In this document: positions 16,468 to 56,153 of the stretch, in pieces
Layout of the letters: the number at the start of each line of letters is the position of its first letter
Numbering within the stretch: position 1 is the stretch's first letter
Source of the DNA: Rhodospirillales bacterium
GTDB taxonomy: Bacteria > Pseudomonadota > Alphaproteobacteria > Rhodospirillales > UBA2165
Length of the DNA stretch: 64,000 bases
Direction: 5' to 3'
Assembly: GCA_028823885.1 (NCBI GenBank)
Contig: JAPPFK010000055.1
Coordinates: 6,971-70,970 of the forward strand
Made by a program: the position numbers and the translations under genes
The notes under the pieces: generated by a model
What the model was told of the DNA's origin: nothing
Database searches by the model: none
What the model saw: the letters and a program-made list of their open reading frames with translations, nothing else

Positions 16468-16477
16468 GTCCGGACCA

Positions 16478-30836: not shown

Positions 30837-31658
30837 CTACTCCCCCGGCTGCGGGCTTGCCTCTTGTGCCGCGGCGGTTTTTGCGGCCGCCGGCGCGCCC
30901 GGCATAGGGGCTTCGGAGACGTCGTCGGGCTGGTTTTTGAACTTCCCGTGCTTCTTGTAATAGGCGTCGGTCTTCACATGCTTGGAGACCACGAACGGCG
31001 CGCCCTTGACGAAGTCATAGAGGGCGACGATGCCGCCGGTCCACATGGTGCGGATCATGTGCATCTTGGCGCGCGACGCGCGAAGCTCGAACAGGTCCGC
31101 GTTTTCGTGGGTGTGATAGGTCTCCCGGTCGTTCAGCACCTCGCGCACCTTCTCGGGCGTCGCCCAGTTGCAGCGGTAGTGAATGGTGCCGTCGGGCCGG
31201 ATCACGTAGAGCACGTTGGGCATGGCGCCGTAGCCGCGGTGGAAATCACCGGCCAGGTTGTCGACCAAAACCCGGCGGTGCTCGCCGTAGCGGGGCGTCA
31301 CCAGCTTGGCCGCCGCCATCTTCTCGTCCATGGTTTCATGGGGGCCCAGGCGCTCGCCGGGATGGGCCTCGCGGACATAGATCAGCAGGAAAGTGACATC
31401 CGGGTACTCGCCGGTGATGTCCTTCATGGTCGGGATATTCTTGGTGTACATGGAGCAGGTGGACGACCCGGTCTCCAGCACCACCCACCTTCCCTCGAAA
31501 TCGGAAAGTCTGACCTCGTTGCCGGTCTCGAGTTCGGTGAAGGTGTGATCGACGAACCGCTCACCGGCCCGCGGGCCGATGAACATGTCGAAATTGTAGT
31601 CGTTGGGCTTAAACCGCTTGTTGTTGTAGACGGGGCCTTTTGGTTGCTCGCTCATCAC
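30837..31658 (-). CDS. thioredoxin-fold protein, iodothyronine-deiodinase-like / peroxiredoxin-like
   Basis: VVLETGSSTCSMY active-site-like segment and IYVREAHPGE motif, as in T4-deiodinase-like proteins, with Cys in place of Sec. Lys/Pro/Ala-rich C-terminal tail. Confidence 0.65.
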   Translation of the reverse strand: MMSEQPKGPVYNNKRFKPNDYNFDMFIGPRAGERFVDHTFTELETGNEVRLSDFEGRWVVLETGSSTCSMYTKNIPTMKDITGEYPDVTFLLIYVREAHPGERLGPHETMDEKMAAAKLVTPRYGEHRRVLVDNLAGDFHRGYGAMPNVLYVIRPDGTIHYRCNWATPEKVREVLNDRETYHTHENADLFELRASRAKMHMIRTMWTGGIVALYDFVKGAPFVVSKHVKTDAYYKKHGKFKNQPDDVSEAPMPGAPAAAKTAAAQEASPQPGE

Positions 31659-31829: not shown

Positions 31830-32756
31830 TTACGCGGCGTCCGCCGTGCGGAGGCTCCGGGCAATATCGTCGGCGATGGTCTCGATGCGCCGGCGAATCC
31901 AGATATGGGCCGGATCGTTGTTGCTGCGCTCGTGCCATACCAGATAAAGGGAAATGCCGTCGCTCCTGAAGGGCAGCGGCGCCATGGCCAGATCCCGCAA
32001 CGGGCCGATGTGCATGGAAGACATTTCGGTGGCGATCAGGTCGGTCCCCTTCACGAACGAGGGAATGGCGTTGAAGTTCGAGACGGTGAGGGTCGGCTCG
32101 GGCAGTTCGGGAATATCGGCCCCGCGCAACGCCACACTGCTCCCCAGACCGCCGGCGAAGCGCACGGTTATATGGTTCGAGTTGAGATACTCGACGGACG
32201 TTTTCGGCGCCTCCCGCACACTCGCATCGTAAAAGCACATCATTGCGCCGCTGATCAGCCGGCGTTGGAAAATATCCGGCGCGTCCGGCGGGAGGGGCGT
32301 CAGAACCAGTTGGCACCGGGCGTCCCGGAGCATGGAAATACTGGGCACCCCCGACGGCATGAACTCGAGCCGGAGCCGGATTCCGTCTTCTTGAGCCTCG
32401 CGCCACAGCCGGGGAAAGATCAACTCCCGCTGGAGGTCGTTGGCCGCGACCACGAATTCCATCTCTTCGGTGCGCGGATCGAAGGGCCGCTGGTCGGTGA
32501 GACTGGAAAGGCCGTCGAGTACGCGAAGCACCGGTTCCTTCAGCGAAATCGCCGTTTCGGTCGGCGTCAGGCCCTGGCCCGAGCGGACGAAAAGCGGGTC
32601 TCTCAACACGGTGCGCAGCTTTGCGAGTGAATGGCTGACGGCCGATTGGGTCACGTTCAGCCGGACGGCCGCCTTGGAGACCGAGGATTCCTCGAGAATG
32701 ACGAGGAATGTCCTCAGAATTTTGCCATCGACCTCATCTATATGAGAAATTTTCAT
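31830..32756 (-). CDS. LysR family transcriptional regulator
   Basis: N-terminal wHTH LRTFLVILEESSVSKAAVRLNVTQSAVSHSLAKLR. Divergent from the TRAP operon. Confidence 0.9.
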   Translation of the reverse strand: MKISHIDEVDGKILRTFLVILEESSVSKAAVRLNVTQSAVSHSLAKLRTVLRDPLFVRSGQGLTPTETAISLKEPVLRVLDGLSSLTDQRPFDPRTEEMEFVVAANDLQRELIFPRLWREAQEDGIRLRLEFMPSGVPSISMLRDARCQLVLTPLPPDAPDIFQRRLISGAMMCFYDASVREAPKTSVEYLNSNHITVRFAGGLGSSVALRGADIPELPEPTLTVSNFNAIPSFVKGTDLIATEMSSMHIGPLRDLAMAPLPFRSDGISLYLVWHERSNNDPAHIWIRRRIETIADDIARSLRTADAA

Positions 32757-32853
32757 ATGGTTTATAAATTAACATGAATAGATTTAATGTCCAGGAACCA
32801 ATAGATTCCCCGGTCTCAACTTCCAGAGAAGTTTGTAGTCCGAGGAGGCTTCA

Positions 32854-33864
32854 ATGAAGCGATCACTAATTCTTGCAGGCATGGCGTTGGCCGTGTCGAC
32901 GCCGTTCGCCGCGGAGGTAAAGGCCGAAGAGCTGACCGTCGCGACCTTCATGCCGCCCCAGCATCACATCAACCGCAACCTGTTCGGCTGGTTCGGAAAG
33001 GAAATCAAGGCACGCTCCGGCGGTTCCCTGACCATGAAACTGTTTCCGGCTGGCCAGCTCGGCGCCGGACCCGTCCAGCAGTACAAGCGCGTGGTCGAGG
33101 GCGTCGCCGACATCGTCTTCGGGGTCAGCGCCTACACCGCCGCCGTGTTTCCGCGCACTATGCTGATCATCCCGCCCGGCAAGTCGAAGAATGCCAAGGA
33201 GTCGACGACCCGGATGTGGAACGTCTTCGACAAGTACATGGCCGGCGAATACAAGGCGGTCAAAAGTCTTGGCGTATTCACCGTCGCCGGCAGCCTGTGG
33301 GCGTCGACCAGGGACATGAGCACCATGGACGGGCTCAAGGGCGCCAAGCTGGTGCCGTACGCCGCCATGACCACGCCGATCATGAAGGCAATGGGGGCGG
33401 TGCCCGTACAGATGCCGGTGACCCAGATGTACACCGGTCTCTCCACCGGGACCATCGACGGCACCTACGCGTCCTACAACAACATCACGCCGCCGTGGAA
33501 CTTCTGGGACGTTTCCAAATATGTGGTCGACAATATTCCGGTGCAGTTCGCCGCGACCTTCGTCGCCATGAACAAGGAGCGCTACGCCGGCCTGTCGCCG
33601 GCCCACCGGAAGATCATCGACGAGCTTTCCGGCAAGACGCTCTCCATGGAGGGCGCGGCCACATTCGACGGGGCCGACAATCGCTCCGAGAAGATGATGC
33701 GGTCGTCGGACAAGATGAAGAAGGTGAAGTGGGTCAAGGTGTCCGATGCCGAGCGCGCCAAGATGGATGCGGCGGTCAAGAAGGGCCTCGAGAGCATCTT
33801 CGCCGACTATGAAAAGCGCGGCATCAAGAACGCCCGGGAAATCTACAACGCCTTGAACCAATAG
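32854..33864 (+). CDS. dctP: TRAP transporter substrate-binding protein (DctP family)
   Basis: Signal peptide MKRSLILAGMALAVSTPFAAEVKA. 336 aa. Followed by DctQ and DctM genes. Confidence 0.85.
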   Translation: MKRSLILAGMALAVSTPFAAEVKAEELTVATFMPPQHHINRNLFGWFGKEIKARSGGSLTMKLFPAGQLGAGPVQQYKRVVEGVADIVFGVSAYTAAVFPRTMLIIPPGKSKNAKESTTRMWNVFDKYMAGEYKAVKSLGVFTVAGSLWASTRDMSTMDGLKGAKLVPYAAMTTPIMKAMGAVPVQMPVTQMYTGLSTGTIDGTYASYNNITPPWNFWDVSKYVVDNIPVQFAATFVAMNKERYAGLSPAHRKIIDELSGKTLSMEGAATFDGADNRSEKMMRSSDKMKKVKWVKVSDAERAKMDAAVKKGLESIFADYEKRGIKNAREIYNALNQ

Positions 33865-33923
33865 CGTTGCGATGGGGCCGGGGTCTCCCAATACCCGGCT
33901 CCATCTTTTTCCGGGCATCGACT

Positions 33924-34460
33924 ATGATCGACCGACAGAAACCGCTGCCGTGGCTGGACAGGCTGGACACGATCATCGTCCGTTTCACGGTGATCGCCGG
34001 CGGCCTCGGTCTCGCCTTCATGGTCCTGCTGACGTTCTTCAACGTCATCATCATGCGGAAGATGCTCAACAACCCGATCACCGGGGCCGAGGATCTGCTG
34101 ATCCTCAATCTCGTCCTGATCGTCGCCATCGCCATCCCCTTCGGCGGCCGGGTCGGGGCGCACATCGAAATCGAGATTTTCGAATCCCGGATGTCGCCCG
34201 GATTCGCCCGCTGGTCGCTCTTCATGCTCAAGATCGTCGGGATCGTGTTGGTCGCGCTGCTGTCGTGGCGGTTGTTCGAGTCCGGCGTTTCGGCGAGCAC
34301 GTTCGGCGAGGCGACCCAGCAGCTGCTGATCTCCTACGAGCCCTACTACTACGTCATGAGCGTGCTGGTCGGGTTCTACGGGCTCATCCTGGTGACCGAC
34401 GCCGTTCAGCTGGTGGTCCGCGGCGCCATCAGCGAGATCGGCGGAATCCAGGACGAATAG
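33924..34460 (+). CDS. dctQ: TRAP transporter small permease (DctQ family)
   Basis: About 178 aa with four TM helices, located between dctP and dctM. Start taken at MIDRQKP. Confidence 0.8.
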   Translation: MIDRQKPLPWLDRLDTIIVRFTVIAGGLGLAFMVLLTFFNVIIMRKMLNNPITGAEDLLILNLVLIVAIAIPFGGRVGAHIEIEIFESRMSPGFARWSLFMLKIVGIVLVALLSWRLFESGVSASTFGEATQQLLISYEPYYYVMSVLVGFYGLILVTDAVQLVVRGAISEIGGIQDE

Positions 34461-35822
34461 ATGATCAGCATGTCGCTCATCGGCGTCGTCGGGCTGCTGG
34501 TGCTGTTCGCCCTGCTGGCGCTCAGGTTTCCGGTAGCGCTGTCGATGATTTTCGTCGGCACCGTCGGCACCATCGCCGCCACCGCCAACCGGTTCCTCGG
34601 CCTCGGCATGTCGCCCGAGCAGGCGTGGGAACGGGGCTGGAAGACCGCCATGTCGAACCTGTCCGGCGAAGCGTTCGAGGCGGCGTCCAATTTCAACCTG
34701 CTGGTCATCCCCATGTTCATCCTGATGGGCAATTTGGCCGGCGCGTCGGGCATGTCCCGGGATCTGTTTACGGCGGCCTACCGATGGATCGGCCACTACA
34801 AGGGCGGGCTCGCTTCGGCGACGATCACCGCGTGCGCCGGGTTTGCGGCGCTGTCCGGCTCGTCGCTCGCCTCCGCCGTCACCATGGGCCGGGTGGCGCT
34901 GCCCGAGATGAAACGCTTCAAATACGCGCCCGAGCTCTCGACCGGCGCGGTGGCGGCCGGCGGCACCCTCGGATTTCTGATTCCGCCGTCCGGCGGCATG
35001 ATCATCTATGCGGTCCTGACCGACCAATCCATCGGCCGCCTGTTCATGGCCGGCGTGGTCCCCGGCATCATTCTGACCCTGCTGTTCGTCGGCACCATCT
35101 GGCTTTTGGTGCGGATGAAGCCCGAGCGGGGACCGGCCGGAGAGCGGGCGAGCGCCCCGGAGCGGCGGGAGTCCTTGATCTCCGCGGTGCCGATTGTCGT
35201 GGTGGTCGGTATCACCATCGGCGGCATGTACACCGGTTTCTTCACGCCGGTGGAGGCGTCCGCCGTCGGCGCATTTCTGACGTTTATCGTCGGCGCGGCG
35301 CGCCGGTCGCTCAAGTGGTCCATGGCCCGCGAGATCATTCTTCAAACCATGAAGGCGACGGCGACCGTGTTCCTGATCATCATCGGCGCCTTCATCTTCA
35401 TCCCGTTCATGTCGCTCACCGGTCTCGCCGCCGACATGGTCACCTTCCTCACCTCGCTGCCCATCGGCGAGTTGGGCATCCTGATCGTGGTCATCCTGAT
35501 CTATATGTTCCTGGGCACGTTCCTCGAGAGCATCGCCATGCTGGTGCTGACCATACCGGTGGTGGTGGCGCTCGCGACCCAACTCGGTTGGGACCTCATA
35601 TGGTTCGGCATCATCGTCGTGATCGTTCTCGAGATGGGGATGATTTCGCCGCCGGTCGGCATCAACGTGTTCGTGGTCAAATCCATCGCCCCGGATGTTC
35701 CCATGCGGACCATCTTCAGGGGGATTTGGCCGTTCTGGTTTGCGATGGCGGTGATGATCGCGCTACTTGTCGCGTTTCCGCCCATCGCCATGTACCTGCC
35801 CGAAACCATGCTCGGGCAATAG
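34461..35822 (+). CDS. dctM: TRAP transporter large permease (DctM family)
   Basis: 453 aa polytopic protein. GGLASATITACAGFAALSGSSLASAVTMG and ISPPVGINVFV motifs. Confidence 0.9.
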   Translation: MISMSLIGVVGLLVLFALLALRFPVALSMIFVGTVGTIAATANRFLGLGMSPEQAWERGWKTAMSNLSGEAFEAASNFNLLVIPMFILMGNLAGASGMSRDLFTAAYRWIGHYKGGLASATITACAGFAALSGSSLASAVTMGRVALPEMKRFKYAPELSTGAVAAGGTLGFLIPPSGGMIIYAVLTDQSIGRLFMAGVVPGIILTLLFVGTIWLLVRMKPERGPAGERASAPERRESLISAVPIVVVVGITIGGMYTGFFTPVEASAVGAFLTFIVGAARRSLKWSMAREIILQTMKATATVFLIIIGAFIFIPFMSLTGLAADMVTFLTSLPIGELGILIVVILIYMFLGTFLESIAMLVLTIPVVVALATQLGWDLIWFGIIVVIVLEMGMISPPVGINVFVVKSIAPDVPMRTIFRGIWPFWFAMAVMIALLVAFPPIAMYLPETMLGQ

Positions 35823-35837
35823 CGGGAGGCAATTGCA

Positions 35838-36602
35838 ATGGTTGTGATCACACCGAAGGATAAATCCGTCGCCGCGCTGACCGGCATTCACCTCTACCAC
35901 GGAGACATTTCCAATTGCTCCATGCGGGTCCGGATGACCCTGGAAGAGAAGGGGCTGGATTGGGAAAGCCACCACATCGACCTGAAAAAGAAAGAGAATC
36001 TCGACGAGGGCTACTTCGCCATCAATCCCAACGGCCTGGTGCCGACGATGATCCACGAGGGCGTGGTTCATATCGAATCCAACGAGATCATCGCCTATCT
36101 GGACGAGACCTATCCCGAGCCGCCCCTCAGGCCGGCGGCCCATGCCGAGGCCATCGATACCTGGCTCGCGCGGGCGGCCGACCTCCATGTCAAGGCGGTC
36201 AAGCCCTATGTCTACGCGACGAAGATGGCGCCCAAGCTGCACAAGACGGCCGAGGAGCAGGAACTCTACGACTCGCTCCAGACCAACGAAGAGCTGATCG
36301 AGTTCCATGCCAAGCACGCGGGCGCCTCGCAGTTTTCGGCGGAAGACGTCAGGACCGCCGTCGAGCTGCTGGACGCGGCGTTCTCCGATGCCGAAGAGGT
36401 CCTGAATACGTACGATTGGCTGTCCGGAGAAAAATTCGGCTTGGCTGATATCTCCTGGTTGCCCATACATTTTGTCCTGGTGGGCTGCGGCTATGACTTC
36501 GACCGGTTCCCCAAGGTGATGGGGTGGGTCGAGGCGGCCCGGCAGCGGCGGAGCTATCAAAAGGGCATTCTCGAGTGGTGCCAGGATTTCGCAGACGTTT
36601 AA
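35838..36602 (+). CDS. glutathione S-transferase family protein
   Basis: Thioredoxin-like N-domain LYHGDISNCSMRVRMTLEEKGL...NPNGLVPTM...ESNEII, followed by a helical C-domain. Confidence 0.75.
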   Translation: MVVITPKDKSVAALTGIHLYHGDISNCSMRVRMTLEEKGLDWESHHIDLKKKENLDEGYFAINPNGLVPTMIHEGVVHIESNEIIAYLDETYPEPPLRPAAHAEAIDTWLARAADLHVKAVKPYVYATKMAPKLHKTAEEQELYDSLQTNEELIEFHAKHAGASQFSAEDVRTAVELLDAAFSDAEEVLNTYDWLSGEKFGLADISWLPIHFVLVGCGYDFDRFPKVMGWVEAARQRRSYQKGILEWCQDFADV

Positions 36603-36629
36603 ACGAACAGAGTTCAAGGAGACACTGAA

Positions 36630-37385
36630 ATGAGCAGACTGAAAGACAAGGTGGCCATCGTCACCGGCGCCGCCCAGGGGATCGGCGAGACCTACGCCAA
36701 GGCCATGGCCGCCGAAGGCGCCAAGGTGGTGGTCTCGGATATCGCGGATCCGAGCCGGGTGGCGGACGAAATCAACGCCGGCGGCGGGACGGCGATCGCC
36801 GTTTCCGCCGACGTCACCAGCGACGACAGCATCGCCGACATGGTGGCCGAGACCGACAAGCAATTCGGCCCCGTCGAGATCCTGGTCAATAACGCGGCGC
36901 TGTTCGCCGAGCTTCGCCTGACGCCGATCATGGAGATGTCCAACGAGGAGTGGGACCGGGTGATGACGGTCAACGCCCGCGGCTCGTTCCAATGCATCAA
37001 GGGCGTCGTCCCGTCGATGCTCACCAACGGGCGCGGCAAGATCATCAATATCTCGTCCGGCACCTTCTATTACGGCGGCCCCGGTTTCGCCAACTACGTG
37101 AGCTCCAAGGGCGCGATCCTCGGCCTGACACGGTCGGCGGCGCGGGAATTCGGCGACAAGAACATTTTCGTCAATTGCATCGTTCCCGGATTCACCGAGA
37201 GCGAGGGCGTCGCCAACCACCCGCAGCTTCACGTCGCCCGCGCACCCACCCTCGCGTCCCGCATCATCAAGCGCGACATGATGCCCGAGGACCTGGTCGG
37301 CACGCTGATATTCCTGGCCTCCGAGGACAGCGATTTCCTCTCCGGCCAGAGCATCAATGTGGATGGCGGCAGATACTGCCAGTAG
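36630..37385 (+). CDS. SDR family oxidoreductase
   Basis: TGAAQGIG cofactor motif, NNAA, and catalytic Y-x3-K (YVSSK). Confidence 0.9.
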   Translation: MSRLKDKVAIVTGAAQGIGETYAKAMAAEGAKVVVSDIADPSRVADEINAGGGTAIAVSADVTSDDSIADMVAETDKQFGPVEILVNNAALFAELRLTPIMEMSNEEWDRVMTVNARGSFQCIKGVVPSMLTNGRGKIINISSGTFYYGGPGFANYVSSKGAILGLTRSAAREFGDKNIFVNCIVPGFTESEGVANHPQLHVARAPTLASRIIKRDMMPEDLVGTLIFLASEDSDFLSGQSINVDGGRYCQ

Positions 37386-37426
37386 CGCCGTCGCGGACAC
37401 TTTCCGTTTCGCGGACAGTGAGCGGG

Positions 37427-37445
37427 TTGTCCGTCATCTGGACTG
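37427..37445. promoter_or_regulatory. TTGTCC-N7-GGAC palindrome upstream of ligAB (candidate IclR-type operator)
   Basis: TTGTCCGTCATCTGGACTG. It is nested in GGGTTGTC-N13-GACAACCC and preceded by two CGCGGACA direct repeats (37392, 37410). Same core as the boxes at 55169, 55231 and 56108. Confidence 0.4.
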
Positions 37446-37545
37446 ACAACCCGGCTGGGCGTGATACTGTGCGCCGGCAATGGTCGACTGACGAGACGCG
37501 CCGGGTGTCATAAGGCGCAATTAAGGCAGAACCCAGGGCAGAACC

Positions 37546-37908
37546 ATGTTTGAAAAAGACTACGACGATATTCCGGGCACCTACGTCTATGACGGGCGGA
37601 TGGCCATGAAAGGCTACGTGCTCAACAAGATGTTCATGTCGTTCATCGACCCGGCGAACCGGGAGCGCTTCGAGGCCGACGAGTGGGCGTACATGAAGGA
37701 GTACGGCCTTTCGGACGAGCAGTGCCGGGCGGTCATGGACCGGGATCTGCTGCGCATCCTCCAACTCGGCGGCAATGTCTATTACGTCTGGAAAATCGCC
37801 GCCATCGCCAAATGGAACATGCGGATGGTGTGCGCCAATCAGGCGGGCATGGAGTACGAGGATTTCCTCGAAAACCGTCTCGGCCTGGAACCGGCGGGAG
37901 ACGGATAA
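37546..37908 (+). CDS. ligA: protocatechuate 4,5-dioxygenase-type alpha subunit (LigA family)
   Basis: 120 aa. KGYVLNKMFMSFIDPANRERFEADEWAYM...LGGNVYYVWKIAAI matches the LigA domain. Confidence 0.8.
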   Translation: MFEKDYDDIPGTYVYDGRMAMKGYVLNKMFMSFIDPANRERFEADEWAYMKEYGLSDEQCRAVMDRDLLRILQLGGNVYYVWKIAAIAKWNMRMVCANQAGMEYEDFLENRLGLEPAGDG

Positions 37909-38747
37909 TGGCGCAAATGATCGGCGGCGTCGGTGTGTCGCACATTCCGGCCCTGGTGCCATACCAGGATCAGGGCCGGGAAAACGAGGGCGAGTATGCG
38001 CCGTTTTTCGAAGGTGCCCAGCCGGTCCGCGACTGGGTCCGGGAGAACCGGCCGGATACGGCGATCGTCATCTACAACGATCACGGCTTGAGCTTCTTCC
38101 TGGACGCCATGCCGACCTTCGCGCTCGGCGCGGCGCCCGGTTACGTGTGCGGGGACGAAGGCTGGGGCGCCCGGCCGCTGCCCCCGGTGCCGGGTCACCA
38201 GGATCTGTCCTGGCATATCATCGATACGCTGATCGAGGATGAGTTCGATCCCGCTATCTGCCAGGAGCTGGAACTCGACCACGGCGCATCCATGCCCATC
38301 CGCCTGTTGTGGAAGCCGGAGCCCGACTGGGACATCAAGATCGTGCCGGTGGCGGTCAACGTCATCCAGCATCCGATCCCCAAGGCCAAGCGCTGCCACG
38401 ATCTCGGCAAGGCCATCCGCCGCGCCGTTGACAGCTTTCCCGGCGACGAGAAGGTGATGATGCTGGGCACCGGCGGCCTGTCCCACCAACTCAGCGGCGA
38501 GCGCGCCGGGTTCAACAATCCGGAATTCGACCAATCCTTCATGGATCGCCTCGCCAACGATCCCGAGGCCCTGACCCGGCTCAGCTCCGGGGACATCATG
38601 CGCGAAGCGGGCGCCGAGGGCGTCGAGGTGGTCATGTGGCTGACCATGCGCGGCGCCCTGGACGAAAACGTGAACGAGCTCTATCGGAACTACTATTCCC
38701 CGGTGTCGGTGACCGCCTCCGGTCTCCAACTGCTCGTCAACGCCTGA
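37908..38747 (+). CDS. ligB: class III extradiol dioxygenase beta subunit (LigB family)
   Basis: MAQMIGGVGVSHIPAL...VIYNDHGLSFFLD...GTGGLSHQL. TAATG overlap with ligA. Confidence 0.85.
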   Translation: MAQMIGGVGVSHIPALVPYQDQGRENEGEYAPFFEGAQPVRDWVRENRPDTAIVIYNDHGLSFFLDAMPTFALGAAPGYVCGDEGWGARPLPPVPGHQDLSWHIIDTLIEDEFDPAICQELELDHGASMPIRLLWKPEPDWDIKIVPVAVNVIQHPIPKAKRCHDLGKAIRRAVDSFPGDEKVMMLGTGGLSHQLSGERAGFNNPEFDQSFMDRLANDPEALTRLSSGDIMREAGAEGVEVVMWLTMRGALDENVNELYRNYYSPVSVTASGLQLLVNA

Positions 38748-38767
38748 ACCGACCGGACATCAGACCC

Positions 38768-40459
38768 ATGAACGAGATCAAGCCTTCCGTCCATCCGGAC
38801 CTGAAAGCTCACCAGGACGGCATGAAGCCCCGGATCTACAAGCTGCGGGACCATATCTACTGCGCTTTCGGCTTCACGGTGGTGAACTGCACCCTGATCG
38901 AGGGTGAGGATTCCTGCATCCTCGTCGACACGATGACCGGCATGGACAATGCCGCGGTGGTCGCCGAGGAGTTCAAGAAGATCACCGACAAGCCGATCAA
39001 GACGGTGATCTACACCCACTTCCATGCCGACCATGTGAGCGGGACGCGCGCCTTTCTCACCGACGAGGAAATCTCGTCCGGCGAGGTGAAGATCATCGGC
39101 CAGGAAGAGCTCGCCGATCACGTAATGCGCGACGTCGGGCTGGTCGGACCGATCATCGGCCGGCGCGCCATGTATCAGTTCGGCATGCGGTTGCCGGTGA
39201 GCGAGGAAGGCACCGTCGGCGCCGGGCTGGGTCCGCCCCAGCGGCCCGGGCCCCGCAGTTTCGTCCCGCCCAACACCACCTTCGAAAGCGTCTACAAGGA
39301 CGAGGTCGGCGGCATCAGGTTCGAGGTCCACCTCAATCCCTCGGAAACCGAGGACCAATGCTGCGTCTGGCTGCCGGATGAAAAGGTGCTGTTGTCGGCC
39401 GACGCCATCTACGAGTCGTTTCCCAACGTCTACGCGCTCCGCGGCACCCGGTTCCGCAACCCCATGGTCTGGGCCCAGGGGATTGATCACCTGCGGGAGT
39501 TCGGGGCCGAGCTGCTGATCCCGCATCACGGCCGGCCGGTCGAAGGCGCGGAGGAGATCGACGCCTTGATGACCGAATACCGGGACGCCATTCAGTTCGT
39601 CCACGATCAGACGCTCCGCTATATGAACAAGGGCTACCGGCCGGACGAGATCAAGGAAGTCGTCGAGATGCCGGACCGGCTCAAGGATCATCCCTGGCTC
39701 GGCGAGTATTACGGCTCGTACAAGCATTCGATCCCGGCGATCTATGCCGGCTATCTCGGCTGGTATCAGGGCGATCCGGTGGCCCTGAGTCCAACGCCGT
39801 GGCGGGAAAAGGCGAAGCGCTACGTGGTGATGATGGGCGGCCGGAGCACGGTTCTCGCCAAGGCGACGGAAGCCATCGACAACGGCGACGATCAGTGGGG
39901 GGCGGAGCTCCTGACGTGGCTGATCCAGGCCGACGTCGACGACCGGGAGGCGCGCAACCTGAAAGCCCGGGCATTGCGCGCCTGGGGTTACCGGCAGAAG
40001 AACGCCACCTGGCGGAACTGGGGCCTGACCAGCGCCCTGGAGCTCGAGGGCGAACTCGATTTGGCGGGCGGCGGCATGGTGCTGGGATCACCCGATCAGG
40101 TCCGCGGGTTCCCGCTCGCCGCCATCCTCCAGGTCATGACCGTGCGGCTGAAGGCCGAAGAGGCCTGGGACACCAATCTGCGCGTGGCGTTCGAGACCAC
40201 CGACACCAACGAGGCCTGCGCGTTGGAGATCAGGCGCGGTGTCTGCCAGTTCTTCCGCGACCCGCCCGCCGAACGGGACGCGGCGATGAAGTTCTCTCGC
40301 GAGTTCCTGCTCAAGTGGGTGTTCGGGCAGACCACCCTCGACGAGGCGATCGCCGCCGGCGACGTGACCATCGACGGCGAGGCGGCGACGGTGACCGAAT
40401 TCATTTCCAAGTTCGAGGCATTCAACGAGGCGGCCGACATTTCGGTCGCGGCGCGCTAG
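38768..40459 (+). CDS. MBL-fold alkyl/aryl-sulfatase (SdsA1/YjcS-like)
   Basis: THFHADHVSG metallo-beta-lactamase motif, 563 aa, with the C-terminal dimerisation and SCP2-like region typical of type III sulfatases. Confidence 0.75.
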   Translation: MNEIKPSVHPDLKAHQDGMKPRIYKLRDHIYCAFGFTVVNCTLIEGEDSCILVDTMTGMDNAAVVAEEFKKITDKPIKTVIYTHFHADHVSGTRAFLTDEEISSGEVKIIGQEELADHVMRDVGLVGPIIGRRAMYQFGMRLPVSEEGTVGAGLGPPQRPGPRSFVPPNTTFESVYKDEVGGIRFEVHLNPSETEDQCCVWLPDEKVLLSADAIYESFPNVYALRGTRFRNPMVWAQGIDHLREFGAELLIPHHGRPVEGAEEIDALMTEYRDAIQFVHDQTLRYMNKGYRPDEIKEVVEMPDRLKDHPWLGEYYGSYKHSIPAIYAGYLGWYQGDPVALSPTPWREKAKRYVVMMGGRSTVLAKATEAIDNGDDQWGAELLTWLIQADVDDREARNLKARALRAWGYRQKNATWRNWGLTSALELEGELDLAGGGMVLGSPDQVRGFPLAAILQVMTVRLKAEEAWDTNLRVAFETTDTNEACALEIRRGVCQFFRDPPAERDAAMKFSREFLLKWVFGQTTLDEAIAAGDVTIDGEAATVTEFISKFEAFNEAADISVAAR

Positions 40460-40476
40460 AGGATCAGGAGGAAGAC

Positions 40477-41274
40477 ATGGCTGAACCCGCTCAGGCGGCA
40501 AACCCGAGGCCGAAGAAAAAGCGCCCGCCCCCCAAGCGCGCCGAGGTCATCAAGGTCGAGCGGATCGTCCCGCGGCTCACGCGGGTAACCTTCGGCGGCG
40601 GGGACATGGCGGCCTTCTCGATGCCCAAACCGGGTGCGCATATCAAACTTCTGTTTCCGGAGCCGGGCGTCACCTGGTCGCCGGCCGACACGGATGCCCC
40701 CCGGCCGCCGAGCCGTACCTATACGCCCCGGCGGTTCGATGCCGATACTCACGAATTGGACGTGGAGGTGGTTCACCACGGCGAGGGGCTCGCGGCCAAC
40801 TGGGTGCGGACCGCCAAGCCGGGAGACGAGTTGTTCATCGGCGGCCCGGGCGGGGGGCTGGATATCCCGGACGGCACGACCCACGCCGTGTTGCTGGCCG
40901 ACGAAACGGCCATGCCGGCAGCCGGGATGATCCTCGAGGCGCTGCCGGAGGACTGCGAGGCGGTCGTCTTCTGTGAAGTGGCGGATGCGGACGACGAACG
41001 GCCGCTAAGCGCGGTCCGGGGGGTTTCGCCCACGTGGCTGCATCGCGCGGAAACCGGCGCGGTCCAGGGAAGCCTCCTGGAGCATGCCGCAAAGACCCTG
41101 GGCGACATGCCGGAGACGACGCTCTGGTGGATTGCCTGCGAGGCGGGCGCCATGCGCCGGGTCCGCAGGCACCTGATGGACGGCCGGGGCGTCGAGAAGG
41201 CGTGGATGAACACCCGGGGATATTGGCGGCTGGGAGAGACCAACTACCCCGATCACGATTACGGTGAAGATTAG
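40477..41274 (+). CDS. siderophore-interacting-protein-like FAD-binding reductase (FAD_binding_9 family)
   Basis: RTYTPRRFD (RxYT FAD motif), GLAANWVRTAKPGDELFIGGPGG and LLADETAMPAAG. Confidence 0.7.
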   Translation: MAEPAQAANPRPKKKRPPPKRAEVIKVERIVPRLTRVTFGGGDMAAFSMPKPGAHIKLLFPEPGVTWSPADTDAPRPPSRTYTPRRFDADTHELDVEVVHHGEGLAANWVRTAKPGDELFIGGPGGGLDIPDGTTHAVLLADETAMPAAGMILEALPEDCEAVVFCEVADADDERPLSAVRGVSPTWLHRAETGAVQGSLLEHAAKTLGDMPETTLWWIACEAGAMRRVRRHLMDGRGVEKAWMNTRGYWRLGETNYPDHDYGED

Positions 41275-41471
41275 CGGAAGCGTGACCGTCCGTCATGCGG
41301 GCGGTTGGGCGGGAGAAAATTGCGGCCGGCCGCCGAACTCGGCCATAAACCAACGAGAGCGGGTCAATCCGCCGGGCAAACGGACTGACAGGGACATGCG
41401 GGAGACGGGCGATCGGTAACGGGTCCCCTTCGTACGACTACATCATCGTCGGCGCCGGATCGGCGGGCTGT

Positions 41472-43049
41472 GTGCTGGCCAACCGGTTGAGCGCCGACGG
41501 GGCCAGTATATTGCTGCTGGAAGCCGGCAAGACGGATCGAAACTGGCTGATCCATGTGCCCCTCGGCGTCGGCAAAATCTGGCAGTCCCCGGCCTACAAC
41601 TGGAAGTACAACTCGGAGCCCGAGCCGGGGCTCGACAACCGCTCGGTGTGGCACCCGCGAGGCCGGGTGGTGGGCGGATCGTCGTCGATCAACATGATGG
41701 CCTATGTCCGGGGCCATCGCGCGGACTACGACCGCTGGCGGCAGAAGGGGCTCGAAGGCTGGTCCTTTGCCGACGTGCTGCCCTACTTCAAGCGCATGGA
41801 ATCCTATGACGGCGGGGCCGACGACTACCGGGGCGATTCCGGGCCGCTGCGCTGCATCGAGCATTGGGGGCAGGATCCCCTGTTCGATGCCTTCGTCGAA
41901 GCGGGCAAGGAGGCCGGATTCGGCTACACCGAGGATTTCAACGGCGCCGAGCAGGAAGGCGTCTGCCGGATGCAGTTTTCCATCGGCGACGGCAAGCGTT
42001 TTTCGTCCGCGACCGCCTATCTGCGCCCGGCGCTCAAGCGGGGCAATATCACGGTCAAGACCGGCGCCCAGGCCGCCCGAGTGGTGTTCGACGGCAACAG
42101 GGCGGCGGGCATCGACTACAAGGACGGAAGCGGCGAGGCCCGGGCCCATGCCGAGCGGGACGTGATCCTCTGCGGCGGCGCGTACAACTCTCCCCATTTG
42201 CTGATGCTGTCCGGCATCGGGCCCGCCGGCCATCTCCGGGAGATGGGCATAGAGGTGCGGGCGGACCGCGGGAATGTCGGCGAGAACCTGCAGGATCATA
42301 CGTCGGTCGGCGTCGACTATGCCTATGCCAAGCCGTCCCCCTATTATAAGTCGCTGCGCCTCGATCGGCTTGCCGTCAACATGATCCGCGCCTACGTTTT
42401 CCGCGAGGGACCTGCCACGCTGCCGCCGGGCGCCGGCACGGCTTTCCTGAAAAGCCGTCCCGAGGCCGACATTCCCGACGTCCAGATGTTCTTTCGTCCG
42501 GTGAACATGTTCGCCAAGGAATGGTTCCCGGTGATCATGCCGTCGCCGCCGGAGGGCTTTTCGCTTCGGACCTGCCATCTGCGGCCGGAAAGCCGGGGCT
42601 GGGTCAGGCTGCGCTCCGGCGATCCCTTTGATCACGCGCGGGTCTTCAATGATTTTCTGTCGACGGAAACCGACCGCCGGGCGCTCCGGGACAGCATCCG
42701 GATGATGCGCGAGATCGCCCATCAACCGGCCCTCGACGGCTATCGGGGCAAGGAGTTGGCGCCCGGCGAGGATGTTACGAGCCAGGACGGCATCGACGCC
42801 TTTATCCGCCAGACCATGATGACCGTGTTCCATCCCATCGGCACATGCCGCATGGGGTCCGACGACGCTTCTGTGGTCGATCTGGAATTCCGCGTCCGCG
42901 GGGTCGAGGGCTTACGAGTGGTCGATGCCTCGGTGATGCCCGATCTGGTGGGCGGCAATATCAATATTCCCGTGATGATGGTTGCCGAGAAAGCGTCCGA
43001 TGTGATTTTAGGAAAACCGCCTTTGCCCGCGGCGGAATTACAGGTGTGA
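41472..43049 (+). CDS. GMC family oxidoreductase (choline dehydrogenase-like); 5' end unresolved
   Basis: GMC signatures GGSSSINMMAY and HPIGTCRMG. The FAD motif YDYIIVGAGSAGC is encoded in frame upstream at 41433-41471, but no ATG, GTG or TTG precedes it. Confidence 0.85.
   Translation: MLANRLSADGASILLLEAGKTDRNWLIHVPLGVGKIWQSPAYNWKYNSEPEPGLDNRSVWHPRGRVVGGSSSINMMAYVRGHRADYDRWRQKGLEGWSFADVLPYFKRMESYDGGADDYRGDSGPLRCIEHWGQDPLFDAFVEAGKEAGFGYTEDFNGAEQEGVCRMQFSIGDGKRFSSATAYLRPALKRGNITVKTGAQAARVVFDGNRAAGIDYKDGSGEARAHAERDVILCGGAYNSPHLLMLSGIGPAGHLREMGIEVRADRGNVGENLQDHTSVGVDYAYAKPSPYYKSLRLDRLAVNMIRAYVFREGPATLPPGAGTAFLKSRPEADIPDVQMFFRPVNMFAKEWFPVIMPSPPEGFSLRTCHLRPESRGWVRLRSGDPFDHARVFNDFLSTETDRRALRDSIRMMREIAHQPALDGYRGKELAPGEDVTSQDGIDAFIRQTMMTVFHPIGTCRMGSDDASVVDLEFRVRGVEGLRVVDASVMPDLVGGNINIPVMMVAEKASDVILGKPPLPAAELQV
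42971..43035 (+). repeat. direct repeat copy A (3' end of the GMC gene)
   Basis: 55 of 65 nt identical by hand alignment to 46281-46345, at an offset of 3310 bp. Confidence 0.7.
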
Positions 43050-43216: not shown

Positions 43217-44251
43217 ATGAAGAAAGTATTGGCAGTAACCGCACTCGCTGTGGGTGCCTCGGCCATGTTCGGGGCCACACAGGCGCAAGCAGCGGAACGT
43301 TGGACCTGTAACGTCTTTACCGGTCCCAAGCACTACGTGAACAAGGGCCTGAAGCCCTGGGGCAAGGAAGTCGGTAAAGTCACCAATGGCGAGGTCAAGA
43401 TCAACTTCCTGCCGGCCAACGCCGCTCCGCCGCCGAAGCAGTTGAACGGCATCGTCGCGGGCACATTCGACTGCGCGTTCATCTTCCATGCGTTTACGGC
43501 GAAGCAGGCCGCCGGTCCCGCCTTCGGCATCCTGCCGTTCCTGAACTCCGGCGGCGCCGAGTTGGGCGGCGCGGCCTATTGGCGGTCGTGGAAGGGAAAC
43601 TTCGAAGACAAGAAGGAATTCGACAAGCTGGGCATCAAGATCCTCAGCATGTTCCAATTCTCCCCTGTCCATTTCTTCACCGCGACGGACACGCCGATCA
43701 ACTCCATCGCCGACATGAAGAGCCAGAAAATGTGGGCGCTTGCGGGCACATCTTCCAAGACCATGAAGGTTGCCGGCGTGAGCCACGTCTCGGGCCCGGC
43801 GGCGCGTCTCGGTGAGTTTACCCAGACCAAGGTCGTTCAAGGCCTCGCCGGCATCACCCGCGGCGGCATCGTCAACTTCGCCGGCGAGCAGTTCGCGAAA
43901 CACGGGACGTTTACGGCCAACTCGATCATGATGCCGTCCTTTGCCTGGATGGTGTCGAAAAAGAAGTGGGAATCGCTGAACGGCGGCCAGAAAAAGGCGA
44001 TCGCGGCTATCTCCGGCGAAAAACTGGCCCGCAGCATCGGCCGTGCCTCCGACGCATTCGAGGAGGTTGCCAAAGTGAGGCTCGCCAAGGTCGGCATGAA
44101 GGAGCACAAGGCGACCGCGGCTTTTGAAGCGGAACTGGAGAAAGCCGGCAAGCCGCAATATGACGCGTGGTTCAAGCGTGTCAAAGCCCTGGGTGTCGAT
44201 GGCCCCAAGGTGATCGAACAGTACCAGAGCATCGTCCGGGCCGGCTCCTAA
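43217..44251 (+). CDS. dctP: TRAP transporter substrate-binding protein (DctP family)
   Basis: Signal peptide MKKVLAVTALAVGASAMFGATQAQA. 344 aa. AGGAG SD. Followed by DctQ and DctM genes. Confidence 0.8.
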   Translation: MKKVLAVTALAVGASAMFGATQAQAAERWTCNVFTGPKHYVNKGLKPWGKEVGKVTNGEVKINFLPANAAPPPKQLNGIVAGTFDCAFIFHAFTAKQAAGPAFGILPFLNSGGAELGGAAYWRSWKGNFEDKKEFDKLGIKILSMFQFSPVHFFTATDTPINSIADMKSQKMWALAGTSSKTMKVAGVSHVSGPAARLGEFTQTKVVQGLAGITRGGIVNFAGEQFAKHGTFTANSIMMPSFAWMVSKKKWESLNGGQKKAIAAISGEKLARSIGRASDAFEEVAKVRLAKVGMKEHKATAAFEAELEKAGKPQYDAWFKRVKALGVDGPKVIEQYQSIVRAGS

Positions 44252-44298
44252 ACGGCACGGGAAAGCGGGCGAATTAGATCCGCACGAAATCTGCTGAC

Positions 44299-44333
44299 GG
44301 CGGCGCCGGAAAACCGGGTTTTTCGGCGCCGCC
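44299..44333 (+). terminator. intercistronic GC-rich hairpin between dctP and dctQ (attenuator/stabiliser)
   Basis: GGCGGCGCCG-gaaaaccgggttttt-CGGCGCCGCC, a 10-bp perfect stem. Confidence 0.45.
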
Positions 44334-44386
44334 CTTAGCATCGGGGCGGGGGCAATCAACGGACCTGTGAGAGGCGGGTAATCCAC

Positions 44387-44926
44387 ATGATCGGGCTGAC
44401 TGATTTTCTGCACAAAATCATCAAGGTGCTCGCGGCGGTAGCGCTTCTGGTGATGATGGTTCTCACGTTCAGTGACGTGAACCTCCGCTATTGGCTCGGC
44501 GAACCCATCCTCGGCAGCAACGAGATGACCGAATTTCTGCTGGGGACCATCGTCTTCTCGGGTCTGGTCATCGTTTCCGGTGAGCGCTCGCACATCATGG
44601 TGACCCTGTTCGAGCCGTTCCTGATGAAGAAGATTCCCTACATCTACAGACTGCTTGGCCTGTTCACGAACATTGCCGGCATTATTGCGGTCACGCTGCT
44701 GATCGCGAACTACACCCAATTCATGCACAGCCAGGGAAACGAGACCGAAATCCGCGAATGGGAGTGGTGGTGGCTGGGCACGCTCCTGACCGCTCTGGCC
44801 GTGATCGCCATTCTCATGGCGGTCCGGTCCATACGGAGGCCGCTCAAGCAGATGGGCGCCGAGGACTTCGGCGCCGTCGACACCGGGGACGGCGCCCAAC
44901 GGCCCGAACAGGGAGGCCAGGCGTAG
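44387..44926 (+). CDS. dctQ: TRAP transporter small permease (DctQ family)
   Basis: 179 aa with four TM helices, located between dctP and dctM. Confidence 0.75.
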   Translation: MIGLTDFLHKIIKVLAAVALLVMMVLTFSDVNLRYWLGEPILGSNEMTEFLLGTIVFSGLVIVSGERSHIMVTLFEPFLMKKIPYIYRLLGLFTNIAGIIAVTLLIANYTQFMHSQGNETEIREWEWWWLGTLLTALAVIAILMAVRSIRRPLKQMGAEDFGAVDTGDGAQRPEQGGQA

Positions 44927-44928
44927 TC

Positions 44929-46261: not shown

Positions 46262-46345
46262 CAGGCCGCATCGGCGTGCCGGTGATGATGGTTGCCGGAA
46301 ATGCGTCTGATGCTATTCTCGGAAATCCGCCTTTGCCCGCGGCGG
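46262..46345 (+). pseudogene. remnant of a GMC oxidoreductase 3' end (direct repeat copy B)
   Basis: Translates as GRIGVPVMMVAGNASDAILGNPPLPAA, against GGNINIPVMMVAEKASDVILGKPPLPAA at the end of the intact GMC gene. It begins right after the dctM stop, has no upstream coding part, and has lost the stop codon. Confidence 0.65.
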
Positions 46346-46370
46346 TAAAAAAAAAGGGAGGCAGGGCGTT

Positions 46371-48275: not shown

Positions 48276-48297
48276 ACAAAACGGAGGTAAACGACCA

Positions 48298-55264: not shown

Positions 55265-56080
55265 ATGAACCAGCTCGCACCGGAGGAATCCCGCAACGGC
55301 GTCAAGTCCATCCGCCGTCTGCTGGTGATCCTCAAGACCCTCAATCAGCACAATGGATCCAAGGTGCTGGAGCTCAGCCGGCAGACCGGCATTTCGCGCC
55401 AATCCATCTACCGGATGCTGGCGACCCTGGAGGAGTTCGGCTACGTGCGCCGCCAGGAAACCGACGACCGGTACTATCTGACCCATCTGGTTCGGGAACT
55501 GGCGGACGGATATTTCGAGGAAGGGTGGGTGACGGAAATCGCCGCGCCGGTTCTGGAGGATCTCCTGGCCGAGGTGGTCTGGCCGACGGATCTCGCCACT
55601 TTTCTCAACGACGCCATGTATCTCAGGGAAACCACGCGCCGCAACAGCCCGTTCACCATCGACCGGGTGACCGTCGGCCAGCGCCTGCCGATGCTGATCT
55701 CCGCCATGGGCCGGGCCTATTTGAGCTACTGTCCGGCGTTGGAGCGGGAACACATCCTGGACGCGCTTCGGAAATCGGACGACGAGTACGACCGGCTTAT
55801 TCACCGCAAGGGCTATGTCGATGCGGTCATCGAAACCACCCGCGAGCGCGGCTACGCGGTGCGTTATTCCAAATATGTGGCGGAAATCAAGACCTCCACC
55901 ATCGCGGTGCCGGTGATGAGCGGTGAACGGGTGATGGCGGCTGTCGGCATCACCTTCATCGCGTCCGCGGCGACCGCCGAGGAGATCGCGGCGCGGCATT
56001 TGGACGCCTTGTTGCGTGCCGCCCGCGAAATCGAAGTCCGCAGCCAGGAGCTTCAGCAACAGGCGCAGCCCGCCAAATAG
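55265..56080 (+). CDS. IclR family transcriptional regulator
   Basis: N-terminal wHTH VLELSRQTGISRQSIYRMLATLEEFGYVRR, then a C-terminal IclR effector domain. Confidence 0.85.
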   Translation: MNQLAPEESRNGVKSIRRLLVILKTLNQHNGSKVLELSRQTGISRQSIYRMLATLEEFGYVRRQETDDRYYLTHLVRELADGYFEEGWVTEIAAPVLEDLLAEVVWPTDLATFLNDAMYLRETTRRNSPFTIDRVTVGQRLPMLISAMGRAYLSYCPALEREHILDALRKSDDEYDRLIHRKGYVDAVIETTRERGYAVRYSKYVAEIKTSTIAVPVMSGERVMAAVGITFIASAATAEEIAARHLDALLRAAREIEVRSQELQQQAQPAK

Positions 56081-56107
56081 GCTTTTCAAACCGTTCTCCC
56101 TTGTATA

Positions 56108-56126: not shown

Positions 56127-56153
56127 ACCGATGCAAAGACGTCCGGGGGAGTT

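Follow-up and report, generated by a model that had tools for sequence, protein, structure and literature searches.

A LigAB-bearing gene block of a Rhodospirillales bacterium as a possible variant of a widespread marine sulfatase/GST cluster

Gene content, spacing and relatives of the block

We analysed a 64,000-nucleotide stretch of DNA (the window) from a Rhodospirillales bacterium (GenBank assembly GCA_028823885.1, contig JAPPFK010000055.1, positions 6,971 to 70,970, forward strand). It carries a block of genes for a tripartite ATP-independent periplasmic (TRAP) importer, a glutathione S-transferase (GST), a short-chain dehydrogenase/reductase (SDR), a LigAB-type extradiol dioxygenase and an alkylsulfatase-type protein of the metallo-β-lactamase fold (MBL). 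We tentatively read this block as a rare version of a cluster that is widespread in marine Alphaproteobacteria. Genes were called from an open reading frame (ORF) listing with translations and from Pfam and NCBIfam scans of the window.

The block opens with the TRAP solute-binding protein DctP1 (32854-33864; Pfam DctP, 2e-29), the small membrane subunit DctQ1 (33867-34460; Pfam DctQ) and the large membrane subunit DctM1 (34461-35822; Pfam DctM, 9e-96). After 15 nt follows GST1 (35838-36602; Pfam GST_N and GST_C), a protein of 254 aa with an SNCS motif, and after a further 27 nt a classical SDR of 251 aa (36630-37385; Pfam 2e-57, adh_short 8.5e-54). A gap of 160 nt (37386-37545) separates the SDR gene from ligA, which encodes the small (alpha) subunit of a class III extradiol dioxygenase (37546-37908; Pfam LigA, 1e-30) and overlaps by 4 nt (ATGA) with ligB for the catalytic (beta) subunit (37905-38747; Pfam LigB, 2e-61). 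The MBL gene (38768-40459), whose product has the three domains Lactamase_B, Alkyl_sulf_dimr and Alkyl_sulf_C, starts 20 nt after ligB, and 17 nt after it starts the gene of a SIP flavoprotein (40477-41274; FAD_binding_9 and SIP, Pfam 3.5e-32 and 2.1e-27). This close ligB-MBL-SIP spacing implies co-transcription. The last gene encodes a GMC oxidoreductase (41412-43049; Pfam GMC_oxred_N and GMC_oxred_C). All of these genes were found on the plus strand with Pfam matches far above threshold, which bears out the gene list and order of an earlier prediction for this DNA (the original prediction), and the gaps of 20 nt before the sulfatase gene and about 160 nt before ligA that it claimed agree with those measured. 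The long gap that it placed before the GMC gene exists as well, and only its size has to be corrected, from about 150 nt to about 137 nt with the ATC start at 41412; depending on the start taken, the gap spans about 137-197 nt.

A LysR-type regulator is encoded on the minus strand at 31830-32756 (Pfam HTH_1 and LysR_substrate), divergent from DctP1 and the genes that follow on the plus strand, as had been claimed; the divergent intergenic region is 97 nt long (32757-32853). The original prediction let the unit end at 43049, and this boundary did not hold, for a second DctPQM system (43217-46257) and a TAXI-type TRAP system (46371-49305) continue on the same strand.

The whole block was found gene for gene in L013, a Rhodospirillales metagenome-assembled genome, with 92-99% amino-acid identity, and was also kept in the metagenome contig L091 (84-98%). 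Sub-blocks occurred in two further loci, in which the shared genes were 60-88% identical to those of the window. In L081, the order was LysR, divergent from DctPQM, GST1, an aldehyde dehydrogenase, SDR, a second GST (GST2), a double-OsmC protein and MBL, with no LigAB; in L088, it was LysR, divergent from DctPQM, the aldehyde dehydrogenase, GST1, SDR, GST2, LigA and LigB, with no MBL, SIP or GMC gene. The LysR orthologues of these two loci showed 72-76% identity and the same divergent position, their DctM1 orthologues showed 87-88% identity, and the SDR orthologues of L081, L088 and L131 showed 80-83%. Because LysR, the TRAP genes, GST1 and the SDR gene are common to the window, L081 and L088, they constitute the core, and MBL and LigAB are alternative or additional accessories to it. 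The stress that the original prediction had laid on the sulfatase-LigAB pair was therefore not sustained: the adjacency is confined to the lineage of the window, whereas L088 has LigAB without MBL and L081 has MBL without LigAB. In the relatives, the position 3' of the SDR gene is occupied by GST2, an OsmC fusion or another lineage of LigAB, and the 160-nt gap is the junction of the conserved core and a variable accessory block.

Enzymes and importers

The MBL protein was a full-length homologue of the class III (SulfAtlas S3) alkylsulfatases SdsAP, YjcS, Pisa1 and SdsA1 (E-values of 5e-90 to 2e-75), with a dimerisation domain (PF14863, 2.7e-44) and a C-terminal SCP2-like domain (PF14864, 1.1e-21). 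The metal-ligand residues HFHADH (84-89), Glu193, Asp212 and His254 were invariant in the alignment and in 59 homologues, with Asp212 being Asp as in Pisa1; the identities of these ligands in S3 enzymes were taken from the SdsAP paper (PMC5426288). The sulfate-binding loop of MBL, ADAIYESFPNVYALRGTRFR, fits the S3 signature [AGSIT]-[EDNA]-[NDLVTECISM]-x4-[LMFQIWVY]-[HP]-[NDQA]-...-[RCT]-G-x3-R, which allows His or Pro at the loop-histidine position (PMC5066984), except at the third position (Ala). Asn220, Arg225 and Arg230 are kept and correspond to Pisa1 Asn318, Arg323 and Arg328, and Pro219 stands at the position of Pisa1 His317, the sole histidine of that loop; the Pisa1 chain numbering in the alignment reproduces His317, Asn318, Thr321, Arg323 and Arg328. 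A review (PMC3920027) states that the leaving sulfate is protonated by a histidine in Pisa1, and the loop position is His in 84% of S3 sequences (PMC5066984). All five solved S3 enzymes (SdsA1, Pisa1, SdsAP, YjcS and 7TL5) have His there, within [L/M]-H-N. The proton-donor histidine is presumably Pisa1 His317. F-P-N was found in 59/59 MBL homologues examined (32-99% identity), and this difference from the solved enzymes marks an 'FPN type', apparently a distinct clade without a characterised member.

The alignment of MBL begins at about residue 20, compared with about 85-116 in the secreted enzymes, so that some 65-95 N-terminal residues are missing. Since a signal peptide is absent, the protein should act in the cytoplasm on an imported substrate. 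It thus shares with the S3 alkylsulfatases (SdsA1 of P. aeruginosa, Pisa1, SdsAP and E. coli YjcS) the three domains, the HxHxDH motif, the carboxylate metal ligands and the loop Asn/Arg/Arg, but differs from them in its predicted cytoplasmic location, the lack of the N-terminal extension and the Pro in place of the loop His; its gene keeps company with GST, SIP and TRAP genes, not with genes for detergent degradation. In class III sulfatases, the attack falls on the carbon atom and the C-O bond breaks with inversion; hydrolysis of aryl sulfates is reported to be beyond them (PMC5870055; PMC3920027). The original prediction had made MBL the desulfating enzyme for phenolic sulfates such as protocatechuate sulfate; this chemistry, which reportedly excludes aryl sulfates, and the Pro at the His317 position speak against that role, and hydrolysis of phenolic sulfates by MBL appears unlikely. 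On the grounds of fold, domains and sulfate loop, we call the protein 'S3-like' and its catalytic function putative. A role as a substitute for a 2-pyrone-4,6-dicarboxylate (PDC) lactonase was also considered and rejected, as MBL aligns with S3 enzymes over its full length and its sulfate loop is intact.

Close homologues of MBL (68-77% identity) occurred in varied contexts with aromatic-catabolic genes among their neighbours, which included TRAP/TAXI genes, GSTs, SDRs, VanA-like and ring-hydroxylating Rieske oxygenases and Meth_synt_2. A formylglycine (S1) sulfatase lay near such a homologue in L085 and a TauD-family gene in L001, and LigAB was found beside none of them. In L001, a TAXI-QM gene 82% identical to that of the window adjoins an MBL gene 71% identical, and outside the window TAXI genes accompany this MBL family as conserved partners. 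The matches listed by an MBL scan of a genome collection were mostly unrelated MBL proteins with less than 30% identity, which were disregarded. A paralogous FPN-type MBL, 53% identical and paired with Meth_synt_2, was observed at 10001-12891 of L084, a 212-kb contig of a related assembly, about 9 kb upstream of glyQ; the corresponding part of the window lacks the paralogue that would be expected from L084. The pairing of MBL and Meth_synt_2 was seen in L002 too.

The best solved-structure matches of LigB were LigB 1B4U (E = 1e-87) and DesB 3WKU (E = 1.6e-81). His12, His61, His195 and Glu242 were identical in the alignment to 1B4U chain B, and we take His12, His61 and Glu242 to be the Fe(II) ligands and His195 the catalytic residue of LigB. 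Among the NCBIfam models, the only cut-off that LigB exceeded was that of NF009901, the family-level 'class III extradiol dioxygenase family' (381 bits, cut-off 290), and LigA fell below all the equivalog cut-offs for the alpha subunit of protocatechuate 4,5-dioxygenase (119 vs 161 bits for NF009918; 93 vs 109 for TIGR02792). Like LigAB of Sphingobium SYK-6 and DesB, the window has overlapping ligA and ligB genes with LigB and DesB as best matches, but its LigB is about equally distant from both and from thousands of family members (about 50-56% identity), and it has Val at the alignment position that we take to be LigB Asn270. Only five protein clusters at least 68% identical to LigB were found in a large database, the rest being at about 50-56%. 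Judged from these comparisons, LigAB is classed as a class III extradiol dioxygenase and is not demonstrable as a protocatechuate 4,5-dioxygenase. The cluster contains no genes of the ligC, ligI, ligU, ligJ or ligK type, and the only Amidohydro_2 genes of the window (14707-15720 and 61737-62723) lie far from it; as a whole route, the 4,5-type cleavage proposed originally thus lacks its ligC/I/J/K-type downstream genes in the cluster.

The LigB proteins of the window lineage and of L088 are 80-98% identical. That of L131, 51% identical to LigB of the window, follows an SDR gene 82% identical to that of the window, and those of L134, L138 and L167 share 56-62% identity among themselves and 45-49% with the window, with a different gene order in each. 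The LigAB lineages beside GST1 clusters thus diverge at 45-62% identity, and LigAB appears to have joined the GST1 cluster several times and in different arrangements. This repeated co-localisation is the best evidence that the pathway yields a catechol-type ring, and the link between a sulfatase theme and extradiol cleavage that had been proposed is strengthened by it.

The best full-length solved-structure match of the GST1 profile was LigF (4XT0; E = 4e-19, 25% identity). We class GST1 by sequence as a distant LigF/zeta-like GST and use it as the marker of the widespread cluster. GST2 of the window (57055-57879, plus strand), which lies 14 kb downstream of the cluster and within it in the relatives, is 50% identical to GST2 of L088 and 47% to that of L081. 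It showed 36% identity to LigF over 236 aa (E = 3e-41), and LigF was the top full-length solved-structure match of its profile (E = 3.6e-39; next match, 3e-25). Likeness of this degree does not by itself define the substrate of either GST. These two, both LigF/zeta-like, are the only GST genes of the window, and no LigE-type or LigG-type GST was seen in it. The best solved-structure matches of the SDR were FabG-like reductases; no LigD, LigL or LigO structure was among its matches at E ≤ 1e-40, and no NCBIfam equivalog cut-off was reached. In the original prediction, GST plus SDR had been likened to ether-cleavage chemistry; the identity of GST2 to LigF upholds one part of this likeness, but the FabG-like SDR and the lack of LigE and LigG types do not. 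The resemblance to the LigD/LigF/LigE/LigG system and HpvZ of Sphingobium SYK-6 is accordingly partial. Both systems have an SDR, LigF-like GST(s) and a GMC enzyme, joined by an aldehyde dehydrogenase in the relatives of the window, and GST2 matches LigF in length as well as in identity. The differences are the low identity of GST1 to LigF, the missing LigE and LigG types, the SDR that is not LigD-like, and the linkage of the genes to TRAP importers and sulfatases, which the lignin system does not have.

The SIP protein is a ferredoxin-reductase-like flavoprotein with FAD_binding_9 and SIP domains and an RTYT motif, and no siderophore genes were found near its gene. The GMC protein scored 644 bits against NCBIfam NF002550 (cut-off 605) and fell below the betA equivalog cut-off (571 vs 732 bits), placing it in the choline-dehydrogenase subfamily. 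The first canonical start of its gene, GTG at 41472, lies 3' of the FAD-binding motif GAGSAG (GxGxxG), which is encoded in frame upstream, and no ATG, GTG or TTG was found in this frame before the motif. An in-frame ATC at 41412 is preceded by a GGGAGA Shine-Dalgarno sequence; both are present in L013, and an out-of-frame ATG upstream of the gene is not conserved. The start is probably this rare non-canonical ATC (AUC). A 5'-truncated pseudogene was rejected as an explanation, because the upstream sequence that encodes the FAD motif has been conserved, L013 differing there by a synonymous change. The likeness to the choline-O-sulfate locus (BetR, BetC, BetA and BetB) comprises a LysR regulator, a sulfatase, a GMC protein of the choline-dehydrogenase subfamily, an aldehyde dehydrogenase in the relatives, and the logic of desulfation followed by alcohol oxidation. 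The differences are that BetC is an S1 sulfatase where the window has MBL, and that GSTs and LigAB have no place in that locus. Pisa1 and SdsA1 had no activity on choline sulfate (PMC5870055).

Both DctPQM systems of the window encode the P, Q and M components together (Pfam DctP, DctQ and DctM). The second, on the plus strand, consists of DctP2 (43217-44251), DctQ2 (44387-44926) and DctM2, which ends at 46257 and is 43% identical to DctM1. Immediately behind DctM2, ahead of the TAXI-QM gene, tblastn and DNA alignment revealed a degenerate duplicate of the 3' end of the GMC gene (46268-46346, plus strand), about 80 nt long and about 85% identical over the aligned core (tblastn match, residues 455-541). 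This scar suggests that the GMC and TAXI genes were separated by insertion of the second DctPQM block. The TAXI genes encode a fused QM protein (46371-48275) and a TAXI binding protein (48253-49305; plus strand, Pfam DctM and NMT1_3). The true start of DctQ1 is probably at about 33945, from where its L088 orthologue aligns. The nearest solved relatives of DctP1 were DctP-type TRAP binding proteins (5IM2, 7NR2 and others), several of which we take to be binders of aromatic acids; a literature search with the PDB codes gave nothing relevant. DctP1 reads LKGAKLVPY where relatives have LKGxKxR, which puts Val at the position of the carboxylate-clamp Arg. The orthologues of L088 and L081 have Val there as well and DctP2 has Trp, whereas the DctP proteins of L078 and L001 and the solved relatives have Arg. 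In TRAP binding proteins, an Arg (Arg147 of SiaP) forms a salt bridge with the carboxylate of the substrate, and 96.8% of the sequences have it (PMC5812351). The absence of the clamp Arg suggests that the ligand is probably not an ordinary, simple carboxylate.

Recurrence in marine loci and surroundings of the block

When metagenomes were scanned with the GST1 profile, 80 loci with 50-63% identity came up in addition to L091. Proteins of the window, L081, L088 and L123 were mapped onto these loci, and partners were counted in the 30 loci of at least 15 kb. An SDR gene was present in 27/30 of these long loci, an FPN-type MBL and a LigF-like GST2 in 23 each, S1 (formylglycine) sulfatases and aldehyde dehydrogenases in 22 each, a double-OsmC protein and a TAXI-TRAP system in 20 each, and a GntR regulator in 18. 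DctM and SIP were each found in 10 loci, LigAB in three, and GMC in one, which belongs to the window lineage. MBL and S1 sulfatases occurred together in 21 of the 23 MBL-bearing long loci. These results support the sulfate-ester theme of the original prediction.

The usual additions in the relatives are a second LigF-like GST, an aldehyde dehydrogenase, a double-OsmC protein and cytoplasmic formylglycine sulfatases. In L123, annotation revealed two S1 sulfatases without a signal peptide and with CxPxR motifs, together with a small MBL protein, SIP, an FPN-type MBL of about 430 aa, DctP-GST1-DctQ-DctM, OsmC, SDR, GST2, an aldehyde dehydrogenase and GntR. GST1 stands between dctP and dctQ in many marine loci, and the marine FPN-type MBLs of about 430 aa are without the C-terminal SCP2-like domain (PF14864). 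A SIP homologue adjoins the FPN-type MBL in 9/23 long marine loci having MBL. The adjacency of MBL and SIP was seen repeatedly, in L096, L111, L117-L119, L122, L123, L128, L130, L138 and L160. More than 1,200 homologues of GST1 were found at E ≤ 1e-50, every one of them named only 'GST family', and their sources include Rhodobacteraceae, Planktotalea, Albidovulum, Defluviicoccus and Rhodospirillales. Marine metagenome assemblies, including TARA scaffolds, are the source of many of the related loci.

The original prediction had stated that LysR controls the set, which is now only presumed. A scan of 31.6-43.4 kb for the sigma-70 promoter consensus gave no site, and only the AT-rich stretch of about 35 nt beside lysR is conserved within the intergenic region, across five loci; this stretch may be an operator or promoter. 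The dyad ATTAA-N11-TTAAT (32768-32788) is not claimed as an operator, being perfect only in the window and not in relatives of 95% identity. Terminator-like hairpins were at background (10 found vs 7.7 expected).

On the other side of lysR, a gene on the minus strand (30837-31658; Pfam PF00837, 5.5e-12) encodes a thioredoxin-fold protein similar to T4_deiodinase and AhpC-TSA. Only the window lineage, L013 and L091 keep it beside the cluster, and its product scored below the cut-off of NCBIfam deiodinase_rel; its membership of the cluster is uncertain. A gene of this iodothyronine-deiodinase/AhpC-like kind might point to reductive dehalogenation or redox chemistry.

The window is chromosomal, with glyQS, pyruvate phosphate dikinase and lipopolysaccharide genes nearby. 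Rfam and tRNA scans gave no match within the cluster, and the only RNA gene detected in the window was tRNA-Pro(CGG) at 4962-5038 (minus strand). A second aromatic-looking neighbourhood at 55265-62723 contains, besides GST2, two IclR regulators, a methyltransferase, the alpha subunit of a nitrile hydratase (57933-58595, minus strand), a VanA-like Rieske O-demethylase (60612-61676) and the Amidohydro_2 gene at 61737-62723 (minus strand). About 20 kb upstream of the cluster, at 14707-17221, the other Amidohydro_2 gene is followed by two tandem genes of the TauE/SafE sulfite-exporter family, which could export sulfite or another anion. The segment 28200-30800 (about 2.6 kb) has a lower G+C content (0.587 in the 28-30 kb bin vs about 0.60-0.69 in most bins), and its ORFs showed no Pfam match, no coding-like signal in third-position G+C (GC3), and no Rfam or tRNA match.

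A possible pathway and its alternatives

From the gene content, the conservation, the co-localisation counts and the active-site residues, which were observed directly, we infer a substrate and a series of catalytic steps. The block possibly serves the catabolism of a sulfate-esterified (side-chain-sulfated) aromatic compound. It may be a rare form, lineage-specific, rearranged and equipped for ring cleavage, of a catabolic cluster that is widespread among marine Alphaproteobacteria and has a TRAP or TAXI importer, GST1, SDR and the FPN-type alkylsulfatase-like MBL as its core; we hold these statements jointly and with reserve. The compound would enter via the TRAP or TAXI systems. The SDR would oxidise a side-chain alcohol to the carbonyl, and the LigF-like GST(s) with glutathione would displace an aryloxide or sulfate from the adjacent carbon, following the logic of β-etherases. 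The cytoplasmic MBL would remove an alkyl or benzylic, not a phenolic, sulfate ester by attack at carbon; phenolic sulfates would be the task of the S1 sulfatases in the relatives, which the window does not have. The GMC flavoprotein would then oxidise the freed primary alcohol. There is precedent for a sulfatase that is followed by a GMC alcohol oxidase, namely BetC/BetA for choline sulfate and SdsA1/LaoA for sodium dodecyl sulfate. Finally, LigAB would open a catechol, protocatechuate-like or gallate-like ring. The isoprene and styrene modules (IsoGHIJ-AldH and StyGHIJ) comprise two GSTs, an SDR dehydrogenase and an aldehyde dehydrogenase. The marine cluster has this set as well, but it differs from these modules in having no monooxygenase and no CoA-transferase and in the presence of TRAP import and sulfatases.

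Several observations weigh against this interpretation. The loci are related and not phylogenetically independent, so that the counts show recurrence rather than significance and overstate the support. The window has no S1 sulfatase, aldehyde dehydrogenase or OsmC gene and may therefore not process the same compound as the marine clusters; conversely, LigAB occurs in few of the long loci and GMC only in the window lineage. With the equivalent of His317 gone, MBL might be inactive as a sulfatase or perform other chemistry. GST1 is only distantly related to LigF, the SDR does not particularly resemble LigD-type dehydrogenases, and the genes that would follow ring cleavage in a ligC/I/U/J/K-type route are missing from the cluster. 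A mosaic origin is indicated by the 160-nt gap, the duplication of the GMC 3' end and the insertion of a second TRAP system. Literature searches found no published pathway with these components, as the original prediction had said of the combination; each protein belongs to a known superfamily, and the marine cluster is apparently undescribed.

The alternatives differ mainly in the role given to MBL. That it is not a sulfatase at all, but a divergent member of the family with different chemistry tied to the GSTs or to the flavoprotein SIP, is somewhat unlikely. Such chemistry could be the removal or hydrolysis of a glutathione conjugate, or a redox cleavage of C-O or C-S bonds at the di-metal centre with electrons from SIP. 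The uniform F-P-N of the homologues against the [L/M]-H-N of the five solved enzymes would fit this proposal, as would the company of GST1 and GST2 (23/30 loci) and often of SIP, the partial redundancy of a third sulfatase in loci that have S1 sulfatases, and the marine members that lack the SCP2-like domain, which recruits alkyl chains. Against this stand the retained Asn, Arg and Arg with the whole loop pattern, the S3 signature that permits [HP] at the loop position (PMC5066984), a conserved loop Tyr (Y215) that could stand in as proton donor, and SIP adjacency in under half of the MBL-bearing loci. The same features of the loop, namely the sulfate-binding Asn/Arg/Arg, would agree with the model of the original prediction, in which MBL acts as an aryl sulfatase that frees an imported sulfated catechol, protocatechuate or flavonoid for LigAB. 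The 20-nt gap between ligB and MBL on one strand, the strong sulfate theme of the related loci and the recurrence of LigAB nearby speak for it too. We nevertheless regard this model as very unlikely, since class III MBL sulfatases cleave the C-O bond by attack on an sp3 carbon and are reported not to act on aryl sulfates (PMC5870055; PMC3920027). Pro stands at the His317 equivalent, the adjacency of MBL and LigAB is limited to one lineage, and the S1 sulfatases, which are of the aryl type and cleave S-O, accompany MBL in 21/23 loci, so that phenolic sulfates would be theirs.

Two further explanations dispense with a sulfate-centred pathway. The block could be a chance mosaic of modules (TRAP-GST-SDR, LigAB, MBL-SIP, GMC and transporters) that happen to share a strand of a catabolic island and serve no common pathway. 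The long gaps before ligA and the GMC gene, the duplicated GMC 3' end with the inserted TRAP system, the variable accessory genes and the occurrence of close MBL homologues in many unrelated contexts (L002-L005 and L080) are what such a mosaic would leave. It is distinctly unlikely, however, given that the MBL family accompanies the GST1 core in 23/30 long loci, that divergent LigAB lineages joined this core several times in different arrangements, and that the ligB-MBL-SIP spacing implies co-transcription. The block could also encode a sulfate-free β-aryl-ether pathway with a LigD-like SDR, GST1 and GST2 as β-etherase and lyase, an HpvZ-like GMC enzyme, LigAB acting on protocatechuate, and MBL as a bystander. 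GST2 is clearly LigF-like, a VanA-like O-demethylase gene lies at 60612-61676, and the enzyme families (SDR, GSTs, the GMC enzyme HpvZ and aldehyde dehydrogenases) match what we take to be the route of Sphingobium SYK-6. We regard this explanation, too, as very unlikely: in the marine loci, GST1 has S1 sulfatases and the S3-like MBL as its core partners, LigE- and LigG-type GSTs were not seen, the SDR is FabG-like, and lignin dimers would not be expected to be common in marine settings.

We therefore return to the catabolism of a side-chain-sulfated aromatic compound as the reading that we tentatively prefer. A bolder proposal, which we consider unlikely, is that the FPN-type MBL represents a new enzyme class, often paired with SIP, that acts with two LigF-like GSTs in an undescribed marine pathway. 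If this were true, the pathway would strip sulfate and/or ether groups from sulfated aromatic dissolved organic matter before ring cleavage, and the LigAB-bearing variant would be a clue to the aromatic substrate.

The MBL-LigAB pair is in our view less important than the common, unstudied marine sulfatase/GST cluster to which it led. Organosulfates and sulfated aromatics make up a large share of marine dissolved organic sulfur and carbon that is still poorly understood, and the cluster joins formylglycine sulfatases, an atypical MBL 'sulfatase' and LigF-like GSTs, enzyme types that are not known to act together. The LigAB-bearing versions narrow the search for the substrate to compounds that yield a catechol. 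Once found, this substrate would test whether MBL sulfatase homologues without the loop His remain sulfatases, and it would give a function to many proteins now annotated as 'GST family' and 'MBL fold'.

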